Source: a virus (Duplodnaviria > Heunggongvirae > Uroviricota > Caudoviricetes). Taken from it: a DNA stretch of 64,000 nt. The notes beneath the pieces are model-generated. The model was given only the letters and a program-made list of their open reading frames with translations, did no database searches and had not been told where the DNA came from. Within the stretch, counting starts at the first letter, position 1. Each line of letters starts with the position of its first letter. Made by a program: the position numbers and the translations under genes. Location: positions 36,685 to 100,684 of the IMG/VR virus record IMGVR_UViG_3300031998_000033. The stretch is one strand, 5' to 3'. Below, in pieces: positions 1 to 64,000 of the stretch.

Positions 1-198
1 TCTTCTTGTCGATAGACCTGAGTTTCTTATACTTCGCATAATCGGCGGCGGTAATATTGTCATCCACGTTTATATAGAAAACATCTACTTTGTCATAGAT
101 AGTCTATCCGATAACGGCCTTTATGGCGCGCTGCAGATATTCGAACCTTTTAGGATACGTCGTAAGGCTTACTATAAATTTTTTTCCATTATCAGTCA
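1..198 (-). CDS. Hypothetical protein, N-terminal part; gene runs off the left edge. One in-frame TAG near 104-106.
   Basis: Minus-strand ATG at ~196-198 with an AT-rich upstream region. Reads MTDNGKKFIVSLTTYPKRFEYLQRAIKAVIG(TAG)TIYDKVDVFYINVDDN... Missed by the ORF track because of the TAG. Confidence 0.4.
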
Positions 199-242
199 TT
201 TGCCACCGTTTAAATTATCTAATATCCATTATATAATATACA

Positions 243-276
243 AAAAAGGCAGGCTTTTACAGCCCGCCTTTTCAGC
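243..276 (-). terminator. Rho-independent terminator after the tail-fibre gene
   Basis: Imperfect GC hairpin ggcgggctgtaaaagcctgcc followed by TTTTTT on the minus strand, just after the TGA stop at 295-297. Confidence 0.55.
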
Positions 277-294
277 AATTCATCCCACTCCGGT

Positions 295-3200
295 TCAATC
301 TGAAAGCTCGTCGCGGATGTCCATAAAGCATTTCACGACTGCGCTCAGCCCGGCGCTGAGGTTCGAGCTCAGCTCGTCAGACGGGAACGTGAGCGTGATG
401 GCGTCGCAGATTTTCGCCTTGACTTCGGCCGCCACTGAATCCCGAATCATGTCATGTATTATGCTCCCGAGGCCTACGACATATTCGCCGGCTCCGCGGA
501 ACTCAACGCCGACGGCATTATCCAAAACCTGCTTATAATCTGGATTTCCGTTATCTGCCGTCAACACCAGACGGTCTACGACGCCGGAGTGGACCGACAG
601 GTTCGGAATCTTGATATATCCTTCGGACGTATCAGTCGTCATGCCGGCTTCCAGCAATACGCTTGTCGTCGCATTGCTGAGCGCATCTATGTTATGAGCG
701 ACAATAGAGAACGTAGCCGGTGTTTCGCCGTTGTATACGTGAACGCTGGCGTTTTCCTCGTTATGTATAGGCAGATAGTTGCTAAGACTGGAATTTATTC
801 TTTCAACCTGAGTTTCTACCGCCTAAACGGCTGAAACCGTCGCATAAGAAGAAAGTCCGACTTCCAGGTCTTCAATTCTTCCGGAAAGCGCTGCGTCGGC
901 TGCGTCGATTTCGGCCGAACTTGAAGTCTCGGTCTTCTTGTAATAGCCGCTGAGATTAACGGATGCCGTCAAATCGGCCAACGCCGCGGATATCTGGTTC
1001 GACGACGAAGTCTCTGTCTTCTTGTAATAGCCGCTGAGATTTTCAAACGAAGGCAGGCTGTCGAACGCATTCTATATTTCTCCGGCCGACGAAGTCTCAG
1101 TCTTCTTGTAATAACCGCTGAGATCGACGGATGCCGTCAAATCGGCCAACGCCGCGGATATCTGGTTCGACGACGAGGTTTCCGCCTTAGAATAATAGCC
1201 GTCGGAAAGCGCCTAGGCTGTAACGAAATCGGAAAGCCTGCTTTCTACAGCTTCAAGATCGGCTACCGTCGCGTACCCGGACAAATCGACCGAAACATCG
1301 GCGAACGCATCAGACAACTGAGCCGCAGAAGACGTTTCTGTTTTCGGATAGAACAGGGACGAAATCCCGCGCAGATCATAAATACGCGCAACCGTATCGG
1401 GCTTAACTTCTTGGCCGGGCTTGGTGAATTCGTATACGCTGGCCTGATCGCCCGTCTTCGTCGTAATAACGAAACCGGCCGTACCATCTCCGAGTTCGTA
1501 GTTTTCGTTTTTAGAATCGAGCTTTTCAGCAAGTCCTTCAACAGACGCGACCTTGCTCCAATCGAGGCAAAACGTCTTATCGTCCGACAGCTCGATTCCG
1601 TCGCCGGACGCGCGGTATACGTCTATGAGGTCGGCGACGTCGCAGGATACGGTTTTTGTCCTGCCTTCCGCAAGCTCTATAACAAAAAACAGCGCTTTTG
1701 ACGACAGCCCTGAAGACACCTCGTATTCAGCTATGTACGCGTCCGAAAGCATTCCGTCGAACGCAAGCTTCGACACGTCCGCGGTAAGCGTCTGGCCGCC
1801 GAACTCAATATACAGGCTCTGTTCGGCATCGTCGTAGCCGAACGATTTCGCGCTGATCTCGTCGAGCCTGGACTGAAGCGTCCTGCCGTTGAAAGTTATC
1901 TCGCCGCCGTCTATCGTCGTCTCGCCGTTTTCGGTCTTGACTCCGAATACGCCGGAAACCTCGCCGCCTTCAAGAGAAAGCCGTTTTTCGACCGCGGCGG
2001 AAAGCGCGTCGTCGCCGGCTGTCCTGTCTTGAATTTCCTGGGCAAGCCTGGCGTCGAGATCGTCAAGGCGTCCGACGATCTCGCTCTGGGAAATGTCGAA
2101 TATCATGAACCGGCGGCCGCTGTCGACCTCCTGAAACCTGAAGGACGTGCACTTGCCGCATTCGACCAGCATCTCGGCGGGAGACCCGTCGTCGAAATAT
2201 ACGGGATCGCCCTGCGGGGTCATAAACCTAACATTGGCGAAACGTCCCTGTTCCGCGGCGCGCGGCTGGAGCATAAACAAAAACTCGCGGGACTTCGTCG
2301 ACCCGTCCGGCTTGTCAGGAATTTCGATTACGATGTCGCCTACGCCGTACTCCCAATATCCCGCTTTATCGTACCTGCGCCTGAACTCGAGGTTCGGATA
2401 TCCGCCGGATCCGCCTCCGACTGGCCTGATGTCGAACTTGTTGGATTCGAAATCGCCGTCCGTCGACTTTACGTAGACGAGCTCATATTGCGTATCATTG
2501 CAAGTCCTGGCCGATACGCTGGAATCAAAGCTGTATTCGTTAAGCCCGAGTATCTGCGCGAACTTGATGTCATAATCCGCGTCCGAATAGGCGATAAACT
2601 TGCATGAACCCGTCTCGGAATCATACCCTTCGACGTGTCCGACGATCTGATTCGTGTCAGGATATACCACGAAGGCATCCGGCATGTCGTAGTTGACAAG
2701 CCTGTTGACGGCGAATTCGCGGGCCTTGATAGGCATAGCCGGCCCGTCGTCCATCGTATAGATCTCGTATCTAGCCGCCCCGTCGGCGTATGCGGTTAAA
2801 GCCGAAGATATCGCCTCATCGGCGGCCTGACGGACAGAACGCTCATTGTCAAAAGCCGCGCTTAGGCCCGAAATCTCAGACGCGGTCTGCTCATCGGCGG
2901 CGCGGCGCGCGTTAGATTCCGATTCAAGCGCCACGTATACGCCAGCGGAAAGCGCCTCGACCGTGTCTTTAAGCCCGTCCAATACGCCAGAGAGGTCGGG
3001 GGGTATGGCCGATACGGAATCGCTGATCGCCTGAATGTCCGCGGCGCATTCGCCTATGGCGTCAAGCAGATCCTCATGAACGTACGTCGAAAGTTCCTAA
3101 AGCTAATCGCCAAACGTTCCAAGCTCTATCCTGCCGCCTTCCGACGTTTTAAGGACTGGATCTACAAGCGTCGCGCCGTAAATATCAACAGACGACAGCG

Positions 3201-3369
3201 TACCCTGGAAAATTTCAGCTTTTCCTTTAATACCGCCTGAAAAAGTACCCCAATATTCGTTTTCTTCGTTATAAAAACGGACTTTCTAAGTCGTAACACG
3301 ATCCTCAGGCTTAAACCCGACCGTTATCGTCTCTTTGACGCGGTTCTTCAAATCTGTATAAGTAGACAT
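295..3369 (-). CDS. Tail-fibre-like protein of about 1024 aa, read through 7 in-frame TAG codons
   Basis: ATG at 3367-3369 with an aggaa RBS; TGA at 295-297. Track ORFs 1213..2982 and 295..657 and the unlisted segments between are all one frame. They are separated only by TAG at 3286, 3103, 3097, 1213, 1072 and 823. Tandem repeats LSGYYKKTETSSSNQISAALADLTASV x3 (about 880-1210) and a fibre-like motif VDIYGATLVDPVLKT. Confidence 0.7.
880..1210 (-). repeat. Three near-identical ~87-nt coding tandem repeats inside the tail-fibre gene
   Basis: The unit gtctcggtcttcttgtaatagccgctgagat...gccaacgccgcggatatctggttcgacgacga recurs at about 920, 1010 and 1090. Confidence 0.8.
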
Positions 3370-5921: not shown

Positions 5922-7112
5922 TTATACTTTCTTATATCCGAACCGCAAAACCAACGTATTCATGAAGTTGACCGCGTATACGGAGACGAGAACACCGAAC
6001 AACGCCGCCTGCGAAAGAGATAATACCGACAGGACAAACGTCGACACGGCGAATGCGAACAGGCTTGCAAAACCCCATGCGCTGAGAAGCAGCCCATGGC
6101 AGAAGCTGAGTTCGGAACTGCCGTACCGCTCAAGCAGCACAGCCGGCGCCATCGCGAAACCGCATCCGTAACACGCGTTGACGATAATAAACGAAATCGG
6201 GGCGCACCGCGGATCGACCAGCACCAAAACAAGCGCGACTATCTCGAGGGCAAGGGCGCACAGCCATGAGTCAACGCGCCGACCCATATAGTCGCTTACG
6301 GCCGGAAACAGAAGGCGCCCGCCGCCGTTTGAAAGACCGCACAGCATCATTACGAATACAACAGCGCCTTCAGTAAGGCCGGACTCGGAAAGCATACCGG
6401 CGCATTGCCCGATTATCACCAGCCCCATGGCGATATTAAGGAACATGAACGTCCAGCACTGCAGAAAATAAGAATCCGAGACATACTTCAAAATCGAATA
6501 CGACTTGCCAGTCTGTTTTTTCAACGCGGCTTTCGCATACTTCGGCTTATCTATCATTATAGACCCTATAGACATCGAAAGCAAATAAACGCCCGCGAAA
6601 AAGAAAAACACGTTCTCTATCCCGAAATACGGAAACGCGTATTTGAACATATAAGAACAGATCGAAGAGCCGAGGCCGAAAGACACTATGGAAATCGCCA
6701 TTATAAGCGCCTTGTGGCTGGACTTGCCGAACCACAGCAGAAGGTTCTTGACCGGCGTGACGTACCCGACGCCTTCGGCAAGGCCACACAATACGCCGCA
6801 TCCGGCGTACAAAAGCCACACATTTTTAACATGCATCGCCAACGCCGATACGCAAAGACCGGCGAACAGCAGCGCTGTCGAAAGCCATGCCGCGCGCTTG
6901 ATGTTCTTCTCGACAAGCGAACCAAACGTGGCGGCTCCCATGCCAAGGAAGAAAATATTCAGGCAAAACGCGAACTGAACCGCGGCCTTAGACGCGCCGA
7001 GGCATCCCTGCGCCGGTCCAGAAAATAAGCTGAACGCGTACGTCCAGCCTATCGCCGTCGTCAGGAGAAAACACGGAATCAGCGACTTGCTCGCTTTATA
7101 TAAAAAAGACAT
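5922..7112 (-). CDS. MFS transporter (oxalate/formate-antiporter-like), about 396 aa, no TAG
   Basis: About 12 predicted transmembrane helices in a typical MFS layout. Likely start is MSFLYKASK at 7110-7112; the track ORF extends to 7190. TAA stop. Confidence 0.6.
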   Translation of the reverse strand: MSFLYKASKSLIPCFLLTTAIGWTYAFSLFSGPAQGCLGASKAAVQFAFCLNIFFLGMGAATFGSLVEKNIKRAAWLSTALLFAGLCVSALAMHVKNVWLLYAGCGVLCGLAEGVGYVTPVKNLLLWFGKSSHKALIMAISIVSFGLGSSICSYMFKYAFPYFGIENVFFFFAGVYLLSMSIGSIMIDKPKYAKAALKKQTGKSYSILKYVSDSYFLQCWTFMFLNIAMGLVIIGQCAGMLSESGLTEGAVVFVMMLCGLSNGGGRLLFPAVSDYMGRRVDSWLCALALEIVALVLVLVDPRCAPISFIIVNACYGCGFAMAPAVLLERYGSSELSFCHGLLLSAWGFASLFAFAVSTFVLSVLSLSQAALFGVLVSVYAVNFMNTLVLRFGYKKV

Positions 7113-7322
7113 CGTTATACCTTCTTCTTCAATGTTCCAAGAAAACACGCGGCGGCTTCGCCGGTAAGCTCGAACGGGCCAAACCCGCATACGCTGGCGA
7201 ACCTTGCCATGCGTTCCGCGGCGTCAACATCGGCGCCCCCGACCACAGCCTTCAAATACAGCTCTGGATCGGTGTTCGCCAAATCAGCGGCGTTCACTGT
7301 CTTGTCCCAGTCTACGTTCATA

Positions 7323-7748
7323 TCAAAGCTTCTTCAAGAAAAGTTCCTTGGCGTACGCGGACGCAAACTTCCGATCGGCGTTTTTTGGCAGCGCTTTCAT
7401 AACGGCGCCTATATTCGCGGCGCCCGAAGCCACGGCGTCGTCCACAAGCCTGCGCGTATCGTCTTCGGAGAGAAGAGCCGGGACAAAAGCCGAAAGGCAT
7501 TCCAATTCCTTTTTCTCCTTTTCCGCCAGTTCGGCCCGTCCGGCGTTTTCGAACTGTTCAATGGCTTCGCGCCGCATCTTAACAGCCTTGGCCGCACATG
7601 CCGCGACCGCGTCGTCGGTAACGGGCTTTCCTTCGTTCACAGTCTTGTTCTTTACGTCTGAGAGAAGGCAGCGCAGGCAATTCCGCTTCACGTCGTCGTG
7701 CGCAATCATGGCCTTCTTTATTTCTTCCTGCAGTTTCTCGTATATCAT
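7323..7748 (-). CDS. GatB/YqeY-domain protein, 141 aa
   Basis: Full-length resemblance to YqeY-family proteins (KRNCLRCLLSDVKNKTVNEGKP...AELAEKEKKELECLSAFVP). No TAG. Confidence 0.6.
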   Translation of the reverse strand: MIYEKLQEEIKKAMIAHDDVKRNCLRCLLSDVKNKTVNEGKPVTDDAVAACAAKAVKMRREAIEQFENAGRAELAEKEKKELECLSAFVPALLSEDDTRRLVDDAVASGAANIGAVMKALPKNADRKFASAYAKELFLKKL

Positions 7749-7785
7749 AGAGTATGAATTTACGTAGTGGTTCTTGTTAAAACAA

Positions 7786-8823
7786 TTAAATGATTTTATA
7801 GCCGGGTTCTAGCACGGGCCATTCTTTTACTTCTGTCTCATAATAATAATCTATCCATTTAGAACCGTCCCAGCATACCGTGTCGCTTATCGACATTCGC
7901 TCCCCGTCCGGACCATGCGCGACGCAACGAAGGTAGCATGCATCCCCAGGCTTCAGTCCGCCGGCGGCTTCGCGCTCGACCGCAAACTCTTCGACACTGG
8001 TAAACGCATGCGCCGGCTCGTATATCTTATCGGGCGTAAGACCTATGCGCGGAAGCACGTTCACCTTGCTCTCATTCAGATTCCTCGCCCTGACATAGTA
8101 TGAATAGCCTGAATGCCTGTCGGAAACATATCCGCGATCGACATAGCCCATATTTCTGAAGAACCGGCCGTCTCCGAGAGAAACATAGTCAGAACATCCA
8201 AGTTTCATGTCATTATAATAAAAACCGAACCCAACGCGGCCGTCGGCGCCAAATGTAAAACCGCATTCGGATTTGAAATGCGCCCTGTTGCGAAACTGGC
8301 CGCAGCCGCACAGAAATTTCGCGTTATTCCCGTCTAAGGTCCTGAGCGGATCAAAAAGCGCCGGATCCGCCTTCGCATCGTCGTTGAAGCCAAGCTTGAC
8401 GTATATGCTGTCAGACCGCTTGTTGACTTCGATAAGCCATGCGCCGCCGTATGTTTTCTCCATTTCAGCTATGAGATCCGCGACGCACAGCATGAACTGA
8501 GAGTGTTCGTAGTTCTTTTTCCACGCCGGAAGCGAAAGGAAAAACACGCCGAGATTATGCGAGACTTTCAAGCCGGACACCAACCGCGCACACTGGAACA
8601 CCGAATGCGGGTTTCCGAGCACATCGTAATAATGCAGTACACCTATCAGGCCTGGAGACTCGAACTTCTCCGAAACGCGCTTGCATATGGCGTCGAGATC
8701 CGAATGCCGTTTTTCAGTATGCGGAACATGGCACCAGACTTCGTCGAAGTTCTTGTCATAATTCAACAGCAAATCCGCCTTGAATTCAATGGGATTCTTT
8801 GAAAAATATATAGAATTACGCAT
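7786..8823 (-). CDS. Hypothetical protein, 345 aa, no TAG
   Basis: Intact ORF. Confidence 0.45.
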   Translation of the reverse strand: MRNSIYFSKNPIEFKADLLLNYDKNFDEVWCHVPHTEKRHSDLDAICKRVSEKFESPGLIGVLHYYDVLGNPHSVFQCARLVSGLKVSHNLGVFFLSLPAWKKNYEHSQFMLCVADLIAEMEKTYGGAWLIEVNKRSDSIYVKLGFNDDAKADPALFDPLRTLDGNNAKFLCGCGQFRNRAHFKSECGFTFGADGRVGFGFYYNDMKLGCSDYVSLGDGRFFRNMGYVDRGYVSDRHSGYSYYVRARNLNESKVNVLPRIGLTPDKIYEPAHAFTSVEEFAVEREAAGGLKPGDACYLRCVAHGPDGERMSISDTVCWDGSKWIDYYYETEVKEWPVLEPGYKII

Positions 8824-9256
8824 TTTCGTCAGACTGGTTTTCTTTAGCGTAGGATTTCTCGACTTCCGACAAATACCTATCGATTACGTCTGGGTCGAAG
8901 TTTGAAATAGTCTTGTCCTCTTTCTTCCACATAAGAAGAATCGCTTCTACAACCTCGCACGCGTTTTCGCCTTCTTCCATATGCAGGAAATGATTAACTA
9001 TATTGAATTCGAACAGCTTGCTTTTCACTGTACCGTCCTTTGCGACGGCGCATAGAAAATTAATAGGCTGAAACCCATAGAACGACTTCTTGTCGCAGGC
9101 TAGAGACGCGTCGCGGTGGAGGATCTGCCCGTCTACAACATACCTCGCATACTCGGCGCTCTTCATTTCGCGGCGCTTATCCGCAGTAAAAAGATCTAAA
9201 GCAAGACGTCTTTTCGCCGTATTCAAAAGACGCGTAATGTTTTTTCTATTAAGCAT
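8816..9256 (-). CDS. Hypothetical protein, 146 aa
   Basis: Intact ORF. First gene of the leftward block that diverges from the terminase operon. Confidence 0.45.
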   Translation of the reverse strand: MLNRKNITRLLNTAKRRLALDLFTADKRREMKSAEYARYVVDGQILHRDASLACDKKSFYGFQPINFLCAVAKDGTVKSKLFEFNIVNHFLHMEEGENACEVVEAILLMWKKEDKTISNFDPDVIDRYLSEVEKSYAKENQSDENA

Positions 9257-9389: not shown

Positions 9390-9773
9390 ATGAATATGGA
9401 TATGAATATGAATACGAATCAAGACAGATAGCTTTCGCATATTAAAAAACCCGGCGAAATAGACAGGATTTCCAAAGAAGAATTCGAATACCGCATTTCG
9501 GAAATCGCGAAATGCAAACGCGACATCAATTATTTCGCATCTAAATATTTTCGCATAATCAGCTTGGATTAGGGTCTTTAGATCATAAACCCATATCCTA
9601 AGCAGAAAGAACTTCTTGATTTTTTTGTACATGAAAACCGCGCGATAATAATAGCGTCGAGGCAGACCGGCAAATGTGTTTGCAAAAATACAAAAATCAA
9701 AATTAAAAATAAAAAGACAGGCGAAATAGAAGAATTGACAATTGAAGATTTCTATAAACGGTTTAAATTATAA
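9390..9773 (+). CDS. terL: Large terminase fragment A: N-extein ending in Walker-A SRQTGK, fused to a 32-aa N-intein (IntN1). Three in-frame TAGs.
   Basis: Frame-3 translation gives ...YFASKYFRIISLD(TAG)GL(TAG)IINPYPKQKELLDFFVHENRAIIIASRQTGK|CVCKNTKIKIKNKKTGEIEELTIEDFYKRFKL, then TAA at 9771. The extein resembles T4 gp17 (YFKI..SLDHGL...YQRDLLK.MHENRF...LSRQLGK). Missed by the ORF track. Confidence 0.7.
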
Positions 9774-11274
9774 GTAAATAAATCTAGCATTACGTTAGAA
9801 AGGAAAATACGTTTATGAAATTTTTCACACATTGTTGCCATTGTGGAAATAAATTTGAAACTAAATCGAAAAAAGCCAAATACTGTAGCTGGCTATGTAA
9901 AAAAATTGAAATTACCAAAGCACAATTTCCGAATGGATCAGATTATGTTGAATGCAAAATATGCGGTCTGCGCGGCAAGCAGATCATATAGCATATAACA
10001 AAAGTCCATAAGATGGAAATTAATGAATACTGCAAAAAATTCAATGTTAAATATGAAGATTTATAGACAAAAAGTTTAAGTATTCAAATGTCGACTAATA
10101 CAAAAAAAGCCTGCGTAGAAGGTCGCTGCGGTTTTCAAAAAGGCGGAGACAATCCGTCGAAAAAAGAAGAATGCCGGAACGGCCGGAACAGCGTATGGTC
10201 GATAAACTTCAAGGGATATGACGGTCTTTCCGATGAAGAGAAAACAGCCAGAATAAAGGCGCTGAGCGAACGAGCGCAGGCGTCACGCGACAGCAGACAC
10301 AACAACGCGACCAAGATCGACTACTACTTGACACGAGGATATTCCGAACAAGACGCGAAAAAAATGCTGCGGGAAAGACAGCGGACGTTCACGCTTGAAA
10401 AATGCGTGGCTAAACACGGAGAGGAAGAAGGCAGCAGGATATACGAGGACAGGCAGCGACGGTGGCAGAACACAATGAAGTCGAAGCCAGTTGAGGAAAT
10501 AGAACGCATCAACAAGGCTAAATTATTTAGCAACCGTAGAGGTTTTTCTATAATCAGTTAGGAATTGTTCGAAAATATAGTTAAACAATTACATGGTCGG
10601 TATAAAAAAATACATTATGCAACTATTACGCCGGGGCGTATTGACGGCGAATACATGGTATATAACAAACATACTAAAACTACATATTTTTTGGACTTTT
10701 ATATAGAAGACAACAACAAGGTAATAGAGTTCGACGGCGATTACTGGCATGGCGAAAAGCGCGGAAACCAGAAACGCGATGCGGAACGCGAAGCGAATCT
10801 CCGTAAGCTGGGCTACGCCAATATCCTGCGCGTCAAGGAACGAGACTACAAAGCCGATCCGGACGCGGTCACGGCGCAGTGCGTCGAATTCATAACGAAA
10901 GGCGATTTATGAACCTCTCTGATACTGTATCCCGTAAATTCGTAGATTCGGCAGACGCGTCGGATTATGAGATCCTGACCGACTCCGGCTGGTAGGATTG
11001 CGTCGCCGTACACAAGACGGTCAAATACGAGATATGGCGCGTCTAGACTGAACGCCATTCGCTGGAGTGCGCCGACGACCATATAGTATTCCGCGAAGAC
11101 ATGAGCCAGGCATTCGTCAAAGACCTTGTACCGGGCGACGCGATAATGACCGAGGACGGCGTTGAAAAAGTAATCTCAATGGAACGGACGGGGTAGTTCG
11201 AGAACATGTTCGACGTCGAGCTGGCCGACGACACAGACCATAAGTACTACACTAACGGGATACTGTCGCATAAT
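9675..11274 (+). mobile_element. Split intein 1 in the terminase P-loop: IntN1 9675..9770, nested homing endonuclease gene, IntC1 10912..11274
   Basis: IntN block A CVCKNT..I. IntC is about 121 aa with block B LECADDHIVF and blocks F/G FDVELADDTDHKYYTNGILSHN, followed by +1 Thr. Splicing would give SRQTGK-TTSYTIF, matching T4 gp17 SRQLGKTT. Confidence 0.65.
9815..10912 (+). CDS. Free-standing homing endonuclease (N-terminal zinc ribbon plus C-terminal Vsr/DUF559-like nuclease), about 365 aa, 3 in-frame TAGs
   Basis: ATG at 9815 with an aggaaaa RBS. Cys clusters CCHCGNKF...CSWLCKK and CKICG. C-terminal motif EFDGDYWHGEKRGNQKRDAEREANLRKLGYANILRV. TAGs at codons 59, 84 and at 10559. TGA at 10910-10912 overlaps the next ATG (ATGA). 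Confidence 0.6.
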
Positions 11275-11634
11275 ACGACGTCCTACACAATATTCGCGCT
11301 CTGGACGCTGATATTCAATCCAGAACAGCGGATAATGCTTCTTGCGAACAAAGCCGATACGGCGATCGAAATTCTTTCGCGAATCCAGCTTGCGTATGAA
11401 TATATTCCTACATGGTTGAAACCGGCTGTCATTACGTGGAACAAGAGCGAAATAATTTTTTCAAACAAATCCGTCATAAAAGGCTTCGCCACGGCATCGG
11501 ACGCGGCAAGAGGCTATAGCGCGAACTGCGTCGCCGGCGACACCAAGATAACAGTGCGGTTTAAAATACTGCCGTTTATGAAATTTAAAATACCAATATC
11601 CTGGCTGAGGTTCCTCGGCAAAGATAGTAAATAA
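10909..11634 (+). CDS. terL: Large terminase fragment B: Met + IntC1 + middle extein + IntN2
   Basis: Middle extein TTSYTIFALWTLIFNPEQRIMLLANKADTAIEILSRIQLAYEYIPTWLKPAVITWNKSEIIFSNKSVIKGFATASDAARGYSAN aligns to T4 gp17 residues following Walker A. It is followed by IntN2 CVAGDTKITVRFKILPFMKFKIPISWLRFLGKDSK and TAA. Confidence 0.7.
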
Positions 11635-13389
11635 ATATATGACAAAAGAAATAACAATAGAACAGCTTAAAAAAGATCTAGCGGACCTGCTTGAAACGTC
11701 GCCGGACAACTACGCGAGATTTCTGAAATCCGAAAAGTACAAAGACAAGTATGAAGGATACATCGACAAGATAAACGAACTGACGCCGCTTCTGCAGGAT
11801 CCGTATTATAAGCTGAAGACGAAAATATACTGGATACTGCACGACATACGCGATTTTCCTAGATGCCATTGCGAAGGATGCCATAATGTGATCGCACGTA
11901 ATGTCGTAAGCGCCGTCGTAGGATACAGCGGCACCGGCCTTTTCTGTTCGAACAGCTGCGCGCAGAAAAGCCAGATGCATAAAGACAAAATGCAAAAGCT
12001 GGCAAGGGAAAAATACGGAAGCGACACCGTCGTCGGATCGCCGGCCGTTCGCATGAAAATAAAAGAGGTGTTCAAACAGAGAGTCGCAGAGAATCCGAAC
12101 TTCTACGTCGGGCGCGCGGAGAAAAGCCGAAAAACATGCAGGATGAGGTACGGCGTGGACAATCCGCAGCAGGACGAGGAGATCCGCAGCCGGACTATGA
12201 CAACGTTCAAAAAGACAATGCTTAGAAAATACGGATATAACAATGCCCTGGACGTACCGGAGATCAGACGGAAAATACGGCAGACCAACATCAAAAAATA
12301 CGGCGTCGAATCCGTATTCCAGAATTCGGAAATGATGCAGACTGTACAGGAGCGCGCTAAATCTCCGGAATCGAAAGCCAAGCGGAAACAGACATTAGAA
12401 GAAAAATACGGCGTCGGCAATTCATTTCAGACGCAGCAGTCTAAAGACGCGGCGATAACGTCCATAAAGACAAAATGCTACAACAGGCTTCTGACAACAA
12501 GCGTTATTCCTAATTTTTCCCTTGAAGACTACTTGAACATAAAGGACTCGGGCAAAAACATAAAAACCGTACTGTCGTGGCACTGCGCCGAATGCGGCAG
12601 AGATTTCGACGCCGTGCCTTTCGAGCATTGCTATGGCAGATCCATAGCAAGGTGCATGCACTGCCATCCCATAATAAACACCGGCTATTCCGTTATGGAA
12701 AAAACGGTGCTCGACTTCGTAAAGGAGCTTCTTCCCGGCGAACGAATAATGGAAAACGACAAGACTATGCTTGTAAATCCCGAAACAGGCAGGAATCTAG
12801 AGCTGGACATCTTCATACCGTCGCTCATGAAGGCCATAGAGTTCCAGGGAACATACTAGCACAGCTTCGAAAAACAGAAGAAGTATGACGCGATAAAAAT
12901 AGAAGAATGCCGGAACAACGGAATAGACCTTATGCAGCTAGACGAAAGCATGTGGACAGACGACAGGGACGCCGCGAAAGCCGCGATATCTGATTTCATA
13001 TTCAACTTAGAAGACCAAACGCTATGAAGCTTTCAGAATCGATAAAACGCCTGTATAAGAAGATAACAAGCATACGCGGCGCAGTGGAGGTGGAAACCGA
13101 CCGCGGATGGGAACCTGTCGAATACGTCATGCAGACGCCGGCGCAGCAGATATACGAGATAACGACCGAGAATGGCCTGGTTTTGAAATGTTCCGCCGAC
13201 CATATCCTGATAGACGCCGAAGGCAATGAAATGCTCGCGAAGGATTCGGCCGGCAGAAAAGTAAAAACCGCCGGGGGCAACGCCGAAATAGTACGGGTGA
13301 GAACGACGGACGAAAAGGCGGAACTATACGATCTTTCGCTCGGCGGAGACCGCCATGCGTACTATGCCGGCGGAATATTGTCGCACAAC
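11527..13389 (+). mobile_element. Split intein 2 at the terminase Walker-B site: IntN2 11527..11631, nested homing endonuclease gene, IntC2 13027..13389
   Basis: IntN block A CVAGDTKIT. IntC has block B LKCSADHILI and blocks F/G LYDLSLGGDRHAYYAGGILSHN, followed by +1 Cys. Splicing would give ARGYSAN-CVICDEFGFV, matching the gp17 Walker-B region. Confidence 0.65.
11639..13027 (+). CDS. Free-standing homing endonuclease 2 (zinc finger, KYG repeat modules, C-terminal Vsr/DUF559-like domain), about 462 aa, 1 in-frame TAG
   Basis: Frame-2 ORF between the two halves of intein 2. Motifs HCEGCHN...CSNSC, repeated KYGVDNPQQDEEIR / KYGYNNALDVPEIR / KYGVESVFQNSEMM modules, and ELDIFIPSLMKAIEFQGTY. TAG at 12857. 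TGA at 13025 overlaps the ATG at 13024. Confidence 0.55.
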
Positions 13390-14745
13390 TGCGTCATATG
13401 CGACGAATTCGGTTTTGTCGCCAATAATATAGCCAACAAGGTCTTCGAGTCCATCTACCCCGTAATCTCTTCGTCGAAGAAGTCGAAATTCATAATCGTG
13501 TCGACCCCCAACGGCGCCGATCCGAACAACCTCTACTACAACCTGTGGCAGCAGGCCAACCAGAAGAGCTACGATAAGAACAAAGAAGGCTGGAAACCGT
13601 TCAGAATCGACTGGTGGGACGTGCCCGGCCGCGACCAGAAGTGGAAAGAGATGACCATCGCGTCGATCGGCGAAAGGCGGTTCGCGCAGGAGTTCGGCAA
13701 TGAGTTCCTGGCCGGCAAACAGAGCCTCAAGCTCATCCCGGACGACATAATAGAGAAATTCAGGATGGAAGCGTCGCGGATGAAAGCATAGGGGCAGGCG
13801 CCGGTCGAGCAGCAGATCCTTTCTGAAAACGAGCAGATGGTGTACAAGTTCAGGATGTGGGCGGAGTTCGACCCGAAAAGAACGTATGCCGCGGCGGCAG
13901 ATATCGCGGAAGGCGTCGGAAAAGACAGCTCCGTATTATATATATTCGACGTCACCGACCTTAGCCGCATAATAATGTGCGCGGCGTTCTCGTCCGATAC
14001 CGTGTCTCTTGTAGAATTCGCGTACGTATGCTCGAAAATCCTTCCGCTTTACGGATCGCCGCCGCTGTTCGCGGAAAGGAACGGCGTTTCAGCCGGTATG
14101 CTGGATTCGTTACGTATAACCTATAAATACCCCAATATAGCGAGGGAATCCAAAAACGGAGAAGCCGGCATCTACTCGCATGTAACAATAAAAGGCCGGG
14201 CTTGCCTATGGGCGCGCGACATGATGACGACGATGGGATTCGGTTTCATTCTTCCCGACCAGGCCCTGCTCGACGAAATGGGCACTTTCGTTAAGAAAGA
14301 AACAAGCGGGCGACATACCGTATTCCAGGCCGCTTCGGGCTCGCATGACGACCACATCATGGCGCTGGTATGGCTATGCTGGGGACTAAATAAGGAAATT
14401 GTCGACAAATATTTCATCGTAGTGAAGACATTCGAATCCCAGCTCGGCGAACTTCTGCCGCAGATGCTCATGCCGATGACAGCATACAACGGCGCGCAGA
14501 TAAAACAGATATCCTAGGATCCCATATACCGCCGGTTCGTGGAAATAAAAAATGAATGTCTCTCGTCCTACAACGCGGCGATGAACGCCGAACAGAACGC
14601 GCAGGAAGACATATTCCAATGGAAAAAAAACCAGCCTCAGTATTTCGACGACGAATGGATAAGTCCGTCATGGAATGAAAACGAAAATCTACAACAGCGG
14701 TCAGTCAATCCAAATAACATCATGCCGTCATTTTTCATAAGCTGA
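13024..14745 (+). CDS. terL: Large terminase fragment C: Met + IntC2 + C-extein (Walker B, ATPase C-motif, nuclease domain). Two in-frame TAGs.
   Basis: C-extein CVICDEFGFVANNIANKVFESIYPVISSSKKSKFIIVSTPNGADPNNLYYNLWQQA matches T4 gp17 MIYIDECAFIPNF...QPVISSGRRSKIIITTTPNGLNHFYDIW. TAGs at 13789 and 14515 are in frame. TGA at 14743. Confidence 0.75.
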
Positions 14746-45277: not shown

Positions 45278-45706
45278 TTAGCCTAAACCGAAACTGGCTT
45301 CAGCCGCGGGCTCAGGCCCGGCGTCTAATTCAGACTCCTCGTCGCCGGCTTCGTCGCCGCCTCCGAGATCGCCTTCATTGCCGCCTTCATCGCCGCCTTC
45401 GCCTTCACCCTCGCCGCCTTCTCCGCCTTCGGCTCCACCGGCTTGTTTCGGTGACGCAGCGGCCGATGCGGCTTTCTCCTCAGCCTCAACATCCTTTTTG
45501 AGACGGATCGGCGACTTAAAGTCAACAGGCGGATTCTCCTCAGAGACCAGGTCGGCGAAATAATCAGCTATGGCCACCAGCTGCTTTTCGCGGATAAGCT
45601 CGCGGAAGTTATCTTCAATGTCCTTATCCGACATGCCGAGATACTTACGCATGACCGTTATCTTAGAGATCTCATCCTAGTCGGCGAACGCCTTGTATAT
45701 CGTCAT
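45278..45706 (-). CDS. Acidic Gly/Glu-rich small protein (possible prohead core / internal head protein), about 142 aa, 1 in-frame TAG
   Basis: ATG ~45704. Low-complexity GGAEGGEGGEGEGEGGDEGG tail. Immediately downstream of the portal gene. Confidence 0.4.
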
Positions 45707-45769
45707 CTTGGCGTCGACAAGCTTCTGAATCTCGTACAGGTCATACAGCACGGGCTTGACGAACTCGAT

Positions 45770-53258: not shown

Positions 53259-55286
53259 ATGGAAAACGACAATACCGCATTAACAAAAGACGGGTCCAGC
53301 GCCGGCTATGTCATAATGGCTTTGTCCGATAGAGGTTTTCCCGTGCTACCGTTCGACGCCGACTACAACATAGAGTACTGCAAGAAGTGCATGCAGACAG
53401 ATGTCAACAACCGCGATTTTGATGGGATGTTCTTGACTGGATGGGAAAAATTCAAGAAAAGATGTGGTGGATGGACCTAGGCAAAAGCACTAGCCAAGAT
53501 AAACGGTCTCAACAAAGTTCTTGGAGTGTCAGTATTCAGCAAGAGAGCTACAGCTGAAGAAGCGATGAGAGAAGGTGAAGTCGCTGAGTGCGGTGGCCAG
53601 TATATGCTATGGGGATACGATGAGGAGAGCATCCTCCCCAACGGACTGGGCCAATATATGCTTGACCACAGCGCTGACTGGGGGATATTTCCAGTATAGT
53701 ACAAGCCAGGTGAACCCGTAAAGTTGCTGTCTGAACAGCCTTTGATGCGATATTTCGATAAAGACTACCAGAAACAGATGCGCGCCTAGATACAATAGAT
53801 AGACAGCAGGATGCCGGGATTTGCCGACAAAATGGAAAAAAAGCTAAACGCCGGTAAAACTAAATTCGGCGGGCCGAAAACAGTACGGGAGCTCTACTCG
53901 TTCCTCGACGAGCAGGACAGACAGAAAAACGGCGATACGTGGATTTACTGGAATGTCAAAGGCCGAGAAATAAAAGCTCAGCCGTATTTTGTGAAGACGA
54001 CACCGCATACAGTTGAAATGCAGCTGCTTCAGTCGTCGACATCAGAGTGCAGCGTTTATTCCCTCCTTAAGGCCGTCAAGGATATATTAGACGACTATGT
54101 GCTAGAAGACAATAAAAAGGACAAGTACTTTGTTTTTAAATACGAATACGACGATAAGGCCTATGAAATAGGATCGATAACAAAAACGATGCAAAGGCTT
54201 GAATTCAACATGATAGACTGGGGAATGGACGAAGCCAAGACATTAGTCGATGAAATCTTTGACCAAATCGACGAATGTGAAGGCGGCTGCGCCTGCGGCG
54301 GAAACTGCGGAGGCGACTGCGGCGGAAACTGCGGCGGCGGAGACGGCGGAATCTCGACCGGAGACGTACTCGGGCCTGACGGAAATTTCGAAAACGGCAA
54401 AGGCAGCATGGGTCCCGGCGACTTCCACGTACCGTTCCCGGTGATGCCATGCCTTGTCAGATGGCCGACAAATTGGCTCGGAGGAAACGCGAAAAAGCGC
54501 AGAAAGAAAAATATGCCAAAGGCCGCGACAGGTTCCAACCCGTACGCGAAAGGCATGAAGACAATCGTCGCGGAAGATGAAGACAGCGTCCAAGTGTTCG
54601 AGTATCAGGGATTCGCGCGCCAAAAATTCGAAGAAATAACGCAGGACGTCGATAACGTATTCACCGGCGTGCTTACGTTCAACAGGAGAATGCGTCTCGC
54701 GTGGCTTATCAACGACAAGGGCTTTATGGAATTCTACAAGCCCATTCGGGATTGGGACGAAAAAACGCATGAACCCATACCCGGCGGAAAATGGCGTATA
54801 TACCATACGCGTCTCGACCGGAACGGTGAAATAGAGCTGCTGGACATATCAGACATGGAATATGGGACAGAAGACGCCGCGCTGAACGCCGTGTTCAAGG
54901 CTGTGCAGGAACACCGGCAGAAACTCACTGAGCGCCTTGAAAAGAAAATAGAAGAATCAAGGCCAGATCCGCGCGAACTCATAAAATGGATAGCGCAAGG
55001 CAAAGACCCTGCCCGATTCCCTATGCATAGGCCGGAAATAGACGCCCGCCGGCTCGAAAATGAAATCCGCATGAAGTTTCCGCACCAGTTCGAAAATGTA
55101 AAACTGTCGAACGCGGCCGGACGATGGACATTGGAATTCACCGCCGAAATTCCCGAAGGCCAAAGCGAATTACGCGGGCAGACGCGCGTGTCGGCGGCCG
55201 TTCCGATGGTCAATAGGATAGTATCGTTTCTTAGGACTCGCGGCGTCGATGTGAACAGCTATGATGTAACAGCTGTCGAACGCTGA
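53259..55286 (+). CDS. Large hypothetical (possibly structural) protein of about 675 aa with 4 in-frame TAGs and a Cys/Gly-rich CGGNCGGDCGGNCGG motif
   Basis: Track ORFs 53259..53480 and 53811..55286 share a frame. No TAA or TGA lies between them, only TAG at 53478, 53697, 53787 and 53796. An internal start at 53811 is also possible. Confidence 0.45.
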
Positions 55287-58755: not shown

Positions 58756-59424
58756 TCAGTCTGGATACGTAAAGTAGAAATAATCTGGTTTTTTAGACGC
58801 GGTTGGAATCCCGTCATATGCAGACTGGGCCAATACGGAAAGCTAGTTGTATTTTCCGCCGTCTACCTACAAATTACTGACGGTTAAATTCGTAATATTG
58901 GCATTTGTCGCGGTAAAATCATTAAAATATCCGTACTGCGCGGAAATGCTCGGAAGCTTATACCAGTTAAGAACGCCGGAAAGCGCGCTTGTAAACCTGA
59001 ATGTGCCTAAAGACGAAAGAAGAATGCCGTTGCTGGAATATATGGCCGATATCAACCGCGGACTGTATTCGCCGTTTTCATACATATAGACATAGGCGCT
59101 TGTATCGCAGCTCATTTTTTCGAGCATGTCCTAATACGGCAGAAGCCCTGCGAGGTCGTCGCTAATCTACGCCGTATCCTCGCGCATGCCCCGTATATCC
59201 ATGATATCGGCCATCCACGCTTCTAGATCGTCGGCCGTCGCGTAATACGACATATATCCGGTATCTGTCATCTCGGAAGGATCGCACGGCTTGGAAATAA
59301 GCAGCAGATCCTTTCTGCCAATGCCATCCGACGTTATTGTAATAGTCGAAAGCTGTGAAATGGGAAGATTCGTCAAGACGTTGTCGGTGACTATAAGACT
59401 GTCGTCCCAATCTTTAATTATCAT
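58756..59424 (-). CDS. Hypothetical (possibly structural) protein of about 222 aa with 4 in-frame TAGs
   Basis: Track ORFs 59167..59424 and 58867..59127 are one frame. TAGs at 59167, 59131, 58867 and 58843. TGA at 58756. aaggaat RBS. Confidence 0.45.
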
Positions 59425-59457
59425 ATCGATATTCCTTTACTGAATATTTACGTCCTT

Positions 59458-60504
59458 TTACGACAAATAGATCTTATCGTATTCCTTTTTCCTGCCGCCG
59501 ACGTATATCATGACGGGTACCGCCCAATATGACGGATGGACGACGCCGGCCGGAGGATCCGCCTGTGTCGTTTTCAGCTCGAGCCGGCACGACTTCATGT
59601 TTATGGTCGCATTGTACGTCTTTGGGCTTTGCGCGGTACCTGCACCGCCTCCGTAATGCACTGTGTCCTTGCCGAGGTTCTACCAGTTGTCCGTACTGTC
59701 GAAATGACTGTTCTCGATATCCGGAACAAGCCTGACGCTGGCGTCAAGACTGTTAATCGGATGCTCATGCGCGGCAAGCGCGACATGCTGCGGAACCTGT
59801 TCGAACCTGCATGTACGGACTCCTTCGGCGGACGAATATTCCGTAAACGGATTCAATTTGACGAACTGCCCGTATAGATCGGGCACGCGCAGCGTCTAGC
59901 CGTATATAAACGGATTCGAGTCCCTTGTAACAAATTTATTGCCGCTTTTAGTAAACTAAGAAGGATCGATATCGAACTGGCTGCCGTCGGGATATACCCA
60001 GCCGTCAAAATCGCTAGACCGTATATATGCGGAATCTATCTAAGGCATTCCGACCTTGGAATACATGAACCGGACCGTCCCGTATTCAGGTTCATCCGGA
60101 ATAGACGGCTGCAACATTGGACAATATATGTCTGCAACGCTATACTGGCCTGTTTTAAACCCGTCGGCGCCGGCGACGCCGGCGGACAATGTGCCTATCT
60201 TCTAAGTGCTTCCGTCGGATGTCTAACCGTATTTAAGCGTCGGCTGGGCATTAACGTAATTTCCGTGTTTGTGTCCGGACAATGAATACTGCCAACTGTC
60301 GGCGAATGCCATTGTTCCGACATGCATAAGATCTAAAGCGCGCTATTTCACGTCGGAGCTTAGTTCGCTGTAACAGGCCCTGTATGTCTGCTGGCCGTTC
60401 TGAACCGCGAAAACAGTATCCGCACAGGCCTAAGCTTGGGCTGGAAGATCCTGGGATCTGAATCCATGAACGCTGACAGCCGTATTGTCTAAATTAATGC
60501 CCAT
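59458..60504 (-). CDS. Fibre/baseplate-like protein of about 349 aa with 8 in-frame TAGs
   Basis: Translated codon by codon from ATG 60502-60504 (TAATG overlap with the upstream gene) to TAA 59458. Track ORFs 59680..59886 and 59458..59661 are internal pieces. Contains IDSAYIRSSDFDGWVYPDGSQFDI. Confidence 0.5.
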
Positions 60505-61445
60505 TACTGTTTTTTCCCTATGTATATCATTATCGGCAGATATCTGAACGAAGGATAGGATTCTTTATTGAACTAAGCGCTGGAGCCGCCTATATCGCAG
60601 CCGCTTACTTCGATCTCGCTGACCTTAAGCGCCAGCGTACTTGTAAACGTCTTATTCGGCGTATACGGCTCATCGCCGTTATGCATACTTCCATAATCCG
60701 ACGCCGTACCTGCGTTTTTAGTCACCTTCGCCTGTATGCGGACAGTCTGGCTTCCGCCGTTGAGCTGAACGGACTGGCTATGGCTATGCCGCGGAAACGT
60801 GCCGTTGCTGAATGTATGGAAAGTCGCGCACGAAACATCGGCCGGAACAACAAAGCCGTCGATGTTCGGAATCTAAAGCGTCGTAGCCGTCTCGTTCTGG
60901 CCGAAACACAGCTTCGCGGCTTTAAAATGCTAAGCCTAGACTGAATAACTCTAGCCGGCCGGATAGACCCATCCGTCGAAAGCTCCGCTGTTTATATCTA
61001 TCTCAGACTGGTCAGGAATATACGGCAGCGCCTTGAACTTCAGCTCGCCAACGACCGGCTCGGCGGCGGCGTACGTCCATAACCTAGGCATGCACAGCCT
61101 TACCGTCCTGTTCCCGATCTTAAACGTCGCAAGCGTAGTATAATCCGGATCCTTATAGTCGTAATCGGCTTTAACGTCAAACGTATTATACCAATGCGTA
61201 TGGTCTGCCTTCGAATACGCGCTGGAAATCTCATGAGACATAGATCCGAAACCAAACCCCGCGCTAAGATCTGCAAACATACTTTCCACCAGATCGCCGT
61301 ATGTAAGCGATTTGGATATATAGTTCTTGTATCCGGAATACAGCGAAGCGGGATGGCTGATGAAAAACCTGTCTTCAGCCCTTATGCGGTCTGTCTGCTG
61401 AAGCTCCTGCAGCTGGACTATGGAATCGCCTGTAAGATTTGACAT
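60504..61445 (-). CDS. Fibre/baseplate-like protein of about 313 aa with 5 in-frame TAGs
   Basis: ATG 61443-61445 behind an aggtgagg RBS. The track ORF 60951..61514 continues through TAG 60951 and four more TAGs to TAA 60504. Shares the motif INSGAFDGWVYPAG with the downstream gene. Confidence 0.5.
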
Positions 61446-61455
61446 ATAAGGCACC

Positions 61456-64000
61456 TCACCTGTTATACGATACCTACTGGAATGACACCCTAAACACGTT
61501 CTCCATGTCTTCACCGCATGGATTCTTGATCACCTTCACGTCATCGGCGTCGAACCGCATTTTATAATAAAACCGGTCGATCTTGAAATACCATGGATCG
61601 AACGCGTCGTTCAGCTCCTATGCCGTAGTAAGCTGCTCGATGTCTATAACGGGCTGGACGGAGCCGTCCGTCGGAAACATCGAATCTATCCATGCGAATC
61701 TTGTAAGCAGGCATCCGGCCAGATATATCTTGCCGTCCGTTATAACCGACATATACTCCGGCACTGTCTTCAGAATCTTTTCAAACATCAGATTCTCAAG
61801 TTCCGCCGGTGTCATCGCGAACCATGTAACCTCATACTGCTCGTCATATACTTTCAAGCTCATGTTCATTACATGATCGGCGATCTTCCATGGATTATTC
61901 GGACTGAGTCTGTAATCGTTTATATCAAATTGTTTGCCGGCGTCTACAACGTATTTTGCGCTGACAAGACTATTCCCGTCGAAATGGTAAAGACAAAGGC
62001 TTTTTAACTGCTGCAGCATCCCGTCAACGCCGTATGTACGCAAATCTGCCGCGATATTATGGTATGTATAATCATAGCATTCGCCGTTCGCATCCATAAA
62101 TACAAGAACAGGCGTCATCAGCGTAGACGCAGTCGAATTTCCAACAGTATACCGCCTGAACTTCGCGCCAAGCGCGTTCGGCTGCTTCTGCTATAGCGTC
62201 TCCCCCTGGTCTTCCTTCGCGAAATTCAGCGCGTTTGGCGAAAGCTCGTCGACGAGAAACCGCAGATGTTCATCGTACACCGGCTGCTGCTCGCATTCAA
62301 GTCCGGCCAAAAGGAACTTCTGCTTCGAAAACCAGATTTGAAACTGCTCGCTGTTCCACAATTTCTTCTGGTATACGGCGCACGGCCCGCATCCGAAAAG
62401 CGAATATATAAAAAGGCACGGCATGCCTTTACGCCTCGCCTCCTCATATATATCGCGCGCGTTATAATACCATTTGCCTGTCTGGAAATTCACCTTCGCC
62501 GTCTTATCCGGCTGATAATCCGGACGCGGCTCCGGATCGTAATGGTAGTAATTGTCGAAATATGTAAAATACGTATCCGGAGGCATGTCCTTGCACCATA
62601 TGTCGACATTATGCCGAAGTCCGAAAAATCCGGTGGAATCTATAGCTTTGACTGTATTCGCGGGATTGATGAAAGTTATCTGATCCAGCCGGTTCCCGTC
62701 AGGCATCTCATAGTTCTGATTCAGCTCTGTCACTTTATACGACTTCGCGCCTGTTCCCGTAAGCTGATTCAACAATGCGACATACTGGTCGTTAAGATCC
62801 TGCATCGCCCTGAAACTGGAGTCTACCTAAGTACGATAGAGCGGCAAATTTCCGCCGTGGCTGTTTATATACGCGTTTTGCTCGTTTACGATTTTGGTAT
62901 ATTCATCGTCTGCAAGCGCCTAAAACGAATACTCGTCTGAAATCTGCGACGCGAACTTTATTCCGGACTTCCTCTTAACAGAACTTCCGAACTTCGCGCA
63001 GGCCAGCCCGTAATTTGAATATGTCTTCAAAGTCGAATTGACGCCGCTGTTCGTTCCGTAGAAATGCTGGTTTATGGCCTTGAACACAGTATCGCGCAGC
63101 GTGCCTGTCAGCTTATTAGTCAACGCCGTAAGCCTGCTTCCCATTTTCGTCTTCAGCCTGCTTATCGCGGCGGACGGGTTTTCTACCCAATCGACGCCGT
63201 TAAGATATTCGAACTGGCCCAGATCGAGGGTATATCCGACGAATACGGCCTTCATCTGCTTTTTCGTCCCGCCGGCCTTTGCATAGTCCTAATACCGCTT
63301 TATCTCGGCGGCAGTATAACCCTCGTCCTGTTTCTGCCGTACAAAATCGGAATCCGCCCATGTTTCGTAATCCGCAAAATTATACGCGTCAACGAGGTCG
63401 GAATCCTTAAGGTATTTGCAGTTTATCTTTTTAGAACCTATTTGAACGCTGAGATAGAATGACGGCTGGACTACGCCGGGCTGTTCGAGCATGCCGTTTC
63501 CAAGCGCGGCGGCGACCATGTCCTCCGGCGTATAGAACATGTCGTCGGTCTCGCATTCTTCATGCGTTACGCCTATTGCGAGAACGACAGGCAGATTCTG
63601 CTCGGCGGCGGCGTCTATTATCGCTGTCATTGTCCTGTAATTGTCGGCGCTGCGCGCGGTCTAACCGTCGTATTCTTCATGCGAAACAAGCGCGTCTTCA
63701 TCATCTATGCCGGATTCGACATATTTCTCATATGTCGGATACAGCGCATAGTAGGGTTCCCTGAATGAATACTGCGTATTCAGGTATAGGTCGAATCCAA
63801 GATTCGGCACGCTGTATTGCTGCTCGACCGATATCTAGCTGATACCTATGCCATGGAATTTCACCCTACGCAGGTTCGGCATATTGGAAAAACAGAACGG
63901 GTCTATTTCGTCCAGCGAGTCTATCGACTGCGGAATTTCAAGCGAAGACACGTTCACGCAGCCGTAGAACGCATTTTTCTACATGTCGTTTATCGCCGAC
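61456..64000 (-). CDS. Very long structural-like protein (>840 aa, 5' end outside the window) with at least 6 in-frame TAGs
   Basis: Track ORFs 63289..63630, 62920..63255, 62191..62805 and 61618..62118 are all in one frame. They are joined only by TAG at 63661, 63289, 62920, 62827, 62191, 61618 and 61474. TGA at 61456. Confidence 0.5.

Follow-up and report, generated by a model that had tools for sequence, protein, structure and literature searches.

The question raised by a 64,000-nucleotide stretch of DNA from a tailed virus (Caudoviricetes; IMG/VR record IMGVR_UViG_3300031998_000033, positions 36,685 to 100,684; the whole stretch is hereafter called the window) is whether the codon TAG, which interrupts many of its reading frames, acts as a stop codon or is translated, and if so into which amino acid and by which agent. 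An initial annotation made from the sequence had proposed a genome-wide recoding of TAG to sense in a T4-like phage with glutamine as the plausible residue. The analysis described here assigns a probability of roughly 0.85 to a large phage genome that measures at least 277,570 bp, has core genes of the T4 type and uses TAG as a glutamine codon instead of a stop (translation table 15), with a suppressor tRNA as the presumed decoding agent. The observation that TAG behaves as a sense codon in the window was confirmed. In the ENA contig ERZ27257204:k141_6112942 (277,570 bp), positions about 112,528-176,527 match the window with 100% identity; the GC content of the window is 0.499. Shorter Logan contigs of run SRR9008936, which were assembled separately, are also identical to the window; the agreement between the ENA contig and the Logan contigs is 100%, with shared reads between both being possible. 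Including the flanks, i.e., 9.6 kb on the right (locus L003, 1-9630) and 6 kb on the left (locus L068, 14739-20696), about 80 kb of the 277.6 kb of this source contig were scanned.

The curated model of the window comprises 64 genes with 19,233 codons and contains at most 85 in-frame TAGs in 28 genes. Dropping the doubtful open reading frame (ORF) 57409-58029 with its 5 TAGs and the TAG at 39810, located upstream of a likelier GTG start, leaves a firm count of about 78-80 TAGs in 27-28 genes, which bears out the more than 75 originally proposed; the positions 44752, 13789, 14515, 46784 and 46214, named at that time for polymerase, terminase and portal, are each an in-frame TAG. Tiling by longest ORFs over-counts TAGs, since low-complexity antisense shadows of real genes enter, and the long TAG-bearing ORFs at 3947-5665, 21879-24143 and 35246-36604 on the plus strand and at 49770-52010 on the minus strand were rejected as such shadows. 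Two ORFs located on the plus strand in different frames, 49726-51321 and 50958-52205, share about 360 nucleotides, the true start of the second being most likely after 51321. The genes of the model end in TAA (32/64) or TGA (32/64) and never in TAG, which includes all 36 genes that lack an internal TAG and have unambiguous ends. No interruption of a conserved gene by TAA or TGA was found in the 64-gene model, in line with the initial annotation.

Coding density was compared by tiling the window with a codon model that was self-trained on it. The coverage is 0.731 with the standard code and increases to 0.84 with TAG as sense, while the controls with TGA or TAA as sense give 0.695 and 0.705, respectively; the gain that had been anticipated is therefore seen only for TAG. 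At the same time the number of genes decreases from 71 to 55 and their median length increases from 176 to 270 amino acids. With a second codon model, trained on TAG-free genes only, the 40 codons following each TAG were scored in all frames, and the frame of the TAG itself scored best in 75 of 75 testable cases. For terminal TAA or TGA stops, the corresponding frame scores best in 16% of cases only (Mann-Whitney p = 4.8e-22 vs. the TAGs).

Furthermore, matches to protein family profiles cross the TAGs in the portal, the C-terminal piece of the large terminase TerL, the clamp loader, the RNase H, the gp13-like adaptor and an HNH endonuclease. The gp20-like portal gene (45278..47122, minus strand) contains four TAGs at 46784, 46214, 45770 and 45677, and the Pfam profile PF07230 Portal_T4 matches residues 71-508 (E = 3.2e-67; 429/433 profile positions), thereby spanning all four. 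The gp44-like clamp loader (17655..18602, minus strand) has one TAG at 18483, which lies within the match to phrog_168 (E = 2.6e-55). Two of the three TAGs (19859, 19349, 19262) of the RNase H/5'-3' exonuclease (19016..19966, minus strand) are spanned by phrog_107 (E = 2e-32), and a precomputed Pfam match to 5_3_exonuc_N is present on the same contig. The gp13-like head-tail adaptor (24160..24975, minus strand) contains a TAG at 24787 spanned by phrog_211, with a precomputed Pfam match to Phage_T4_gp13 on a fragment. The AT-rich HNH/NUMOD homing endonuclease (36856..37728, minus strand) has three TAGs, all spanned by phrog_655 (E = 1.1e-28). In the gp43-like family-B DNA polymerase (42181..45108, minus strand; Pfam DNA_pol_B and DNA_pol_B_exo1; TAG at 44752) and in the gp55-like late sigma factor (47862..48446, minus strand; phrog_234, E = 1.6e-18; TAG at 48348) the TAGs are located just upstream of the profile matches, and tblastn alignments to relatives cover both.

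The residue encoded by TAG was deduced from relatives that were read codon by codon around the portal, namely the loci L005 (a 125,776-bp contig), L006, L008 and L009, with portal identities to the window by tblastn of 86% for L005 and 72-76% for the other three. These four relatives cover 13 TAG sites of the window, of which 9 have glutamine in at least one relative and 1 has TAG again. DNA-checked residues opposite the TAGs are glutamine in 16 of 28 cases, each of the 16 being CAG, which is one transition away from TAG; the rate matches the ordinary conservation of glutamine in the same alignments (60%). Using the substitution frequencies of those same alignments, the log-likelihood of the 28 aligned residues is -49.6 for glutamine and -91.3 for histidine as the next best, a distance of 41 natural-log units, and glutamine is more than 45 units ahead of glutamate, lysine and arginine. 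The reciprocal test, in which 19 TAGs of the relatives were compared with the residues of the window, gave -38.2 for glutamine and -57.0 for glutamate (19 units). Individual sites follow the same pattern: L005 has CAG at all four portal TAG sites; the column of portal TAG 46214 is CAG in L005, L006, L008 and L009 and, among 18 family members, glutamine in 90% or more, some of these members being code-15 translations; the column of the sigma factor TAG 48348 is CAG in L005, L008 and L009; and that of the polymerase TAG 44752 is CAG in L008 and L009. TAG 59956 of the 8-TAG ORF 59458-60504, together with a TAG in a paralogue, lies in a column that is glutamine in all five homologues, with a genuine glutamine codon confirmed at the DNA level for P0121 only. 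As the protein collection contains code-15 translations, a glutamine in a database homologue does not constitute independent evidence; four out of four glutamines in the 94%-identical proteins P0001-P0004 were dropped for this purpose, and the evidence was restricted to the codon-checked relatives.

Judged by these alignments, the in-frame TAGs almost certainly encode glutamine, as was guessed initially, and the window represents a clean site-by-site case of TAG behaving as a glutamine codon. Taken together as glutamine-like codons, the model contains 85 TAG, 470 CAG and 86 CAA, resulting in a TAG share of 13%. TAG is followed by a purine in 75% of cases and CAG in 58% (p = 0.036). A purine following an amber codon is a favourable context for suppression in E. 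coli. T or A precedes most TAGs (63%), and CAG is preceded by G in 48% of cases (chi-square p = 3e-9). In L008 (4848-9650) and L009 (2818-7667) the polymerase gene is broken up by ORFs whose Pfam hits are endonuclease-like and intein-like, while the copy in the window is continuous.

The use of TAG as a sense codon extends to the relatives. Relatives abound in metagenomes, with portal identities of 55-95% and contigs of up to 395,716 bp, and a coverage gain specific for TAG was also found in L005, L010, L011, L012, L014, L019, L191 and L192 and in both flanks of the source contig; for L010, L011, L012, L014, L019, L191 and L192 the tiling coverage rises from 0.72-0.85 to 0.91-0.98 if TAG is sense. 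The distant marine-type T4-like loci L029, L048 and L052 do not show a TAG-specific gain. The relatives also carry TAGs elsewhere in these genes.

TAG is used unevenly across the genes of the window. It amounts to 22% of the glutamine-like codons in structural genes, 20% in packaging genes, 16% in homing endonucleases, 12% in replication genes, 1/9 in the gp55-like sigma factor and 0/43 in metabolic genes, the heterogeneity among genes being significant (G-test p = 6e-5). A TAG-free block of 18 genes with 3,564 codons extends over 11.6 kb (25070..36714) and includes a Peptidase_M50, a fusion of nicotinamide mononucleotide (NMN) adenylyltransferase and Nudix domains and a Band_7 protein; it contains 76 CAG or CAA codons and no TAG (P = 3e-5, given the TAG share of the whole window). 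A second TAG-free cluster (5922..9256, minus strand) encodes an MFS transporter (Pfam MFS_1), a YqeY/GatB-C-like protein (phrog_1460; precomputed PF09424 YqeY) and two unknown proteins. Within it, at 5922-7748, the transporter adjoins the YqeY/GatB-C-like gene (7323-7748), both being TAG-free, and the best NCBIfam match of the transporter is of the L-lactate or oxalate/formate type and below cutoff. Also free of TAG is the nicotinate phosphoribosyltransferase (NAPRTase) gene of the PncB type (37846..39069, minus strand; NCBIfam NF003704, 422 bits; TIGR01514). The TAG-free genes avoid TAG as stop codon too and are therefore read identically under both codes. The recoding had been called genome-wide, which is an overstatement, as neither the 18 genes of the 11.6-kb block nor any of the metabolic genes contain TAG.

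As for the decoding agent, TAG would be read by a phage suppressor tRNA with the anticodon CUA, which would be charged with glutamine and encoded elsewhere on the contig, and a release factor 2 (RF2) gene possibly aids the switch. This tRNA step is proposed because of the precedent in other code-15 phages, for which suppressor tRNAs and RF2 are documented (Borges et al., bioRxiv 10.1101/2021.08.26.457843; Peters et al., PMC9523058). TAG-free genes could then be translated at the onset of infection, when the host is still unmodified, and TAG-containing genes would need the suppressor. Since the polymerase, the clamp loader, the RNase H and the gp55-like sigma factor carry TAGs, such a switch must act before replication and late transcription and would not be confined to the late or lysis stage.

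Several points weigh against this reading. ARAGORN, also with introns allowed, and Rfam at the gathering threshold identified no tRNA in the window or its flanks, i.e., in about 80 kb of 277.6 kb, and neither a release factor nor an aminoacyl-tRNA synthetase gene is present among the gene annotations of the window or the precomputed Pfam hits of the flanks. The initial annotation had likewise noted that a suppressor tRNA and RF2 are missing from the window, which is upheld by ARAGORN and Rfam for the tRNA and by the lack of an annotated release factor. No Rfam family was detected in the window or the flanks, and for the window Rfam showed no tRNA even down to E = 1. No tRNA was found in 18 portal-centred loci of relatives, nor in a 5.9-kb stretch read from a 92-kb IMG/VR relative. 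The TAGs in genes of the early type, such as polymerase and clamp loader, misfit a simple late-gene timing model. Most TAG columns of the 8-TAG gene described below are variable, and not glutamine, at 40-50% identity, and the glutamine evidence from databases is partly circular, with P0066, P0094 and P0121 showing glutamine where the DNA has TAG. Finally, the assignment of glutamine is drawn from aligned codons.

The explanation that competes best is that TAG is sense without a suppressor tRNA of the phage, either in a host that already reads TAG poorly as stop or by means of a non-canonical agent such as a modified host tRNA-Gln, perhaps with help of the YqeY/GatB-C-like protein. It would account for the lack of tRNAs in the scanned part of the genome and in the 18 loci of relatives, it agrees with surveys in which suppressor tRNAs were detected in only about 40% of the phages with TAG recoding and, among jumbo phages with recoding, in about 61%, and the TAGs in replication genes demand a very early suppression; the TAG-free YqeY-like gene at 7323-7748 could be added to these points. 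However, about 70% of the contig lies outside the scanned part and tRNA genes of phages usually occur in clusters, the standard code has been the rule in the hosts of recoded phages investigated to date, and the link of YqeY to suppression is pure speculation with no function tying them, so that we regard this explanation as unlikely. Only marginally better are the prospects of the broader proposition that the lineage reads TAG as glutamine either without a conventional phage suppressor tRNA or in a proteobacterial host (e.g., rumen Succinivibrionaceae), with the switch needed from the first minutes of infection. If this improbable proposition were true, the code change would be a precondition for replication and not a timer for late genes or lysis.

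That TAG encodes a residue other than glutamine, e.g., tyrosine, leucine, lysine, glutamate, tryptophan or pyrrolysine, is very improbable. Some TAG columns are indeed lysine, aspartate, arginine, alanine, leucine or threonine in relatives, and those of the 8-TAG gene mostly vary, but this has to be set against the lead of glutamine over histidine, glutamate, lysine and arginine in the likelihoods, against the exclusive pairing of TAG with CAG among glutamine partners and against the two columns, the portal column with at least 90% glutamine and the invariant glutamine column of the five fibre-like homologues, that are both TAG here. Just as hard to sustain is a leaky stop with low read-through that throttles expression. 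The grading of TAG use by gene class and the purine enrichment at the following base would be compatible with it, but at low read-through hardly any full-length protein would be made from genes with 8-9 TAGs or from essential genes such as the portal with four, TerL with eight and the DNA polymerase, and a leaky stop is difficult to reconcile with the complete lack of TAG as terminator in the 64 genes. The weakest explanation, that TAGs are true stops in pseudogenes of a decaying element or are assembly or sequencing errors, accords with the fragmentation of genes under the standard code and in public gene calls but can practically be dismissed, as the interruptions are TAG only and without frameshifts at the TAG sites, the coding signal is intact after 75/75 TAGs, TAG swaps specifically with CAG in relatives whose own TAGs are placed differently in the same genes, two assemblies are 100% alike and no gene has TAG as terminator. 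The preferred reading, TAG as glutamine codon with a presumed phage suppressor tRNA, has a practical consequence. The public gene calls for this 277-kb contig were made under the standard code and are fragments, which leaves its portal, terminase, polymerase and host-interaction proteins mis-annotated and calls for re-annotation under table 15.

Four TAG-dense genes (58756..63984, minus strand), with 4, 8, 5 and 9 TAGs and the last one running off the window, probably encode host-interaction or structural proteins, and the coding signal stays in frame after every one of their TAGs. One of them, ORF 59458-60504, contains 8 TAGs in 348 codons and aligns to a 347-aa database protein over 100% of its length (E = 1.5e-109); the count of 8 TAGs in a distal fibre-like gene was thus correct, and the label distal fibre-like is not supported by any profile. 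The repeat-rich protein of 1,024 amino acids encoded at 295..3369 (minus strand; codon model score 159) had been described as a tail fibre with 7 TAGs, but it carries 6, and no profile match was found for it. A 675-aa protein with 4 TAGs (53259..55286, plus strand) is encoded directly upstream of the tail-tube gene (55304-55957; phrog_45, E = 1.8e-12) and is possibly the sheath; no profile match was found for it, and it is 50% identical to its L005 counterpart over the whole length, with one TAG opposite CAG and one opposite TAG.

The large terminase gene (9399..14745, plus strand) is fractured into three pieces at about 9399-9773, 10909-11634 and 13024-14745 with PHROG terminase matches, and free-standing homing endonuclease genes, likewise with PHROG matches, are located in between (9815-10912 and 11639-13027). 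The region contains 12 TAGs including 13789 and 14515, with 8 across the TerL pieces. The gene is broken by two split inteins with short N-fragments, the match to Pfam Intein_splicing being sub-threshold, and the junctions, marked here by a slash, read ...ASRQTGK/CVCKNT..., ...GILSHN/TTSY..., ...RGYSAN/CVAGDT... and ...GGILSHN/CVICDEF.... Two split inteins within one gene are unusual. This arrangement is similar to the atypical split intein AceL-TerL. It also resembles the fractured genes described by Dassa et al. (PMC2677866).

A further trace of mobile elements is found next to the NAPRTase gene. A gene-poor stretch of 1.1 kb at 36.7-37.8 kb was considered as an RNA gene and rejected, as it represents the AT-rich HNH homing endonuclease gene with its TAGs. 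Downstream of this gene, at 36716-36810, a second, diverged copy of the C-terminal coding end of NAPRTase is found (...KGMCRDSEYVEYLKRCIDWRLRHEA). From the sequence, the HNH gene together with the diverged copy (36716-37850) looks like a homing footprint.

Six proteins with starts at 42111, 41413, 39885, 25405, 21834 and 21038 share the N-terminal leader MKKTYTKKQIxEAIAYWKKQL, with one TAG being located at the variable x position. This column had been reported earlier and was found again, with the TAG in the protein encoded at 41641-42111 and glutamine, valine, threonine, alanine or lysine in the paralogues. The leader resembles the sequence MKTYQEFIAE, which in T4 serves capsid targeting and contains an IxE protease site, and if this likeness holds, the six proteins would be packaged into the head.

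The motif RGTAAATAW occurs at 13 sites vs. 1.7 expected, a count that was reached in 0 of 100 shuffles, and the sites include 9773, 11626, 24981, 25408, 41445, 42148, 48475, 52197 and 55966. Most sites with the GTAAATA core precede a gene start by 7-44 nucleotides and one does so by 121 nucleotides, and none of the RGTAAATAW sites is inside the TAG-free block at 25.5-36.7 kb. The T4 late promoter TATAAATA was examined too and is not convincingly enriched, with 6 matches vs. 2.2 expected. RGTAAATAW could be a candidate late-type promoter for the gp55-like sigma factor. The presence of both, in a T4-type layout, makes it easier to frame the code switch as an infection timer: the TAG-free block is defined and structural genes are the most recoded, yet the machinery for replication and late transcription needs suppression.

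By gene content the phage is of the T4 type, as was proposed, as the window contains Portal_T4, gp13, the gp55-like sigma factor, the gp44-like clamp loader, PolB, RNase H, TerL and the tail tube. However, the relationship is a distant one: among 50,697 GenBank phage records (INPHARED), the portal of the best cultured match is only 24.7% identical, which does not indicate a close relationship to Straboviridae, Kyanoviridae or Ackermannviridae, and no close relative of the window was found in INPHARED. The polymerase gene, which was the sole stretch searched at the DNA level, has no match in these 50,697 records. A capsid gene was not found in the window, and Pfam Gp23 was seen in the relative L006 only. 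Precomputed Pfam hits in relatives include a protein with a vault-like MVP_shoulder domain, a TROVE (Ro60-like) domain protein and a PARP-domain protein (L005 18071-20641; L192 1411-3069 and 8691-9974).

The lineage is found in herbivore guts. IMG datasets with relatives originate from elephant faeces (3300001598), sheep rumen (3300021426) and cow/sheep rumen (3300033463), and two ENA records probably stem from rumen studies, judging by their names STEW19-1 and XIEF21-1. A proteobacterial host had been considered initially on account of the PncB-like gene. In comparison with PDB chains, NAPRTase reaches 268-238 bits with 1yir, 3os4 and 4hl7, which we take to be gammaproteobacterial, and 162 bits with 2im5, presumably from Porphyromonas. 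This preference favours the idea, but it stems from one metabolic gene that is only 58% identical to the L005 copy, two GTDB scans with NAPRTase and with the portal alignment revealed no cellular relatives, and the relatives of the phage come from rumen and elephant faeces.

The phage shares with T4-like phages (Straboviridae and allies) the gp20 portal, gp13, the gp17 terminase, the gp43 PolB, the gp44 clamp loader, RNase H, the gp55 sigma factor and the tail tube. In contrast to cultured T4-like phages, which use the standard code, it is TAG-recoded; its prohead protease matches ClpP-like head-maturation protease families, unlike that of T4-like phages, and RGTAAATAW as candidate promoter stands in place of the T4 late promoter sequence.

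Knowledge of TAG recoding in phages dates back to 2014, and wide surveys have followed, also of jumbo phages with a gp20-type portal. Code-15 gut phages, in which TAG encodes glutamine, were described for crAss-like and Lak phages and for the Agate, Garnet, Amethyst and Topaz clades (Borges et al., bioRxiv 10.1101/2021.08.26.457843), and the incorporation of glutamine at TAG was proven by proteomics (Peters et al., PMC9523058). The window has in common with these phages the in-frame TAGs in conserved genes, the inference of glutamine, structural genes as the most strongly and replication genes as variably recoded, a set of genes compatible with the standard code, close relatives that differ in their TAG sites and the origin from animal guts. 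It differs in that a suppressor tRNA or RF2 was not found in the approximately 80 kb scanned, in its T4-type core (Portal_T4, gp13, gp55-like sigma factor) and in its GC content of about 50%, and with at least 277 kb its contig exceeds the mean sizes given for Agate, Sapphire and Jade (bioRxiv 10.1101/2021.08.26.457843). The phage phAss-1 (Phassvirus) carries TAG in 41 ORFs including TerL and portal, with glutamine inferred from conserved glutamine columns (PMC10607447). Its lineage is unrelated to that of the window, as it has a genome of 136 kb, a tape-measure protein of the siphovirus type and three tRNA-Sup(CTA) genes (PMC10607447). In a survey of jumbo phages from 2026, a code-15 jumbo phage was reported with Portal_GP20 in three fragments under code 11 that is restored under code 15, and alternative codes were found mostly in jumbo phages from rumen, pig gut and human gut, many having tRNA(CUA) and RF2 (PMC13037316). 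The portal of the window gives the same picture of a fragmented and then restored gene; compared with that survey, the identity of the residue and the gradient across gene classes were worked out site by site in the window. The window is thus a well-resolved new case of a well-documented habit of code-15 gut phages, which extends the known picture and does not change it.

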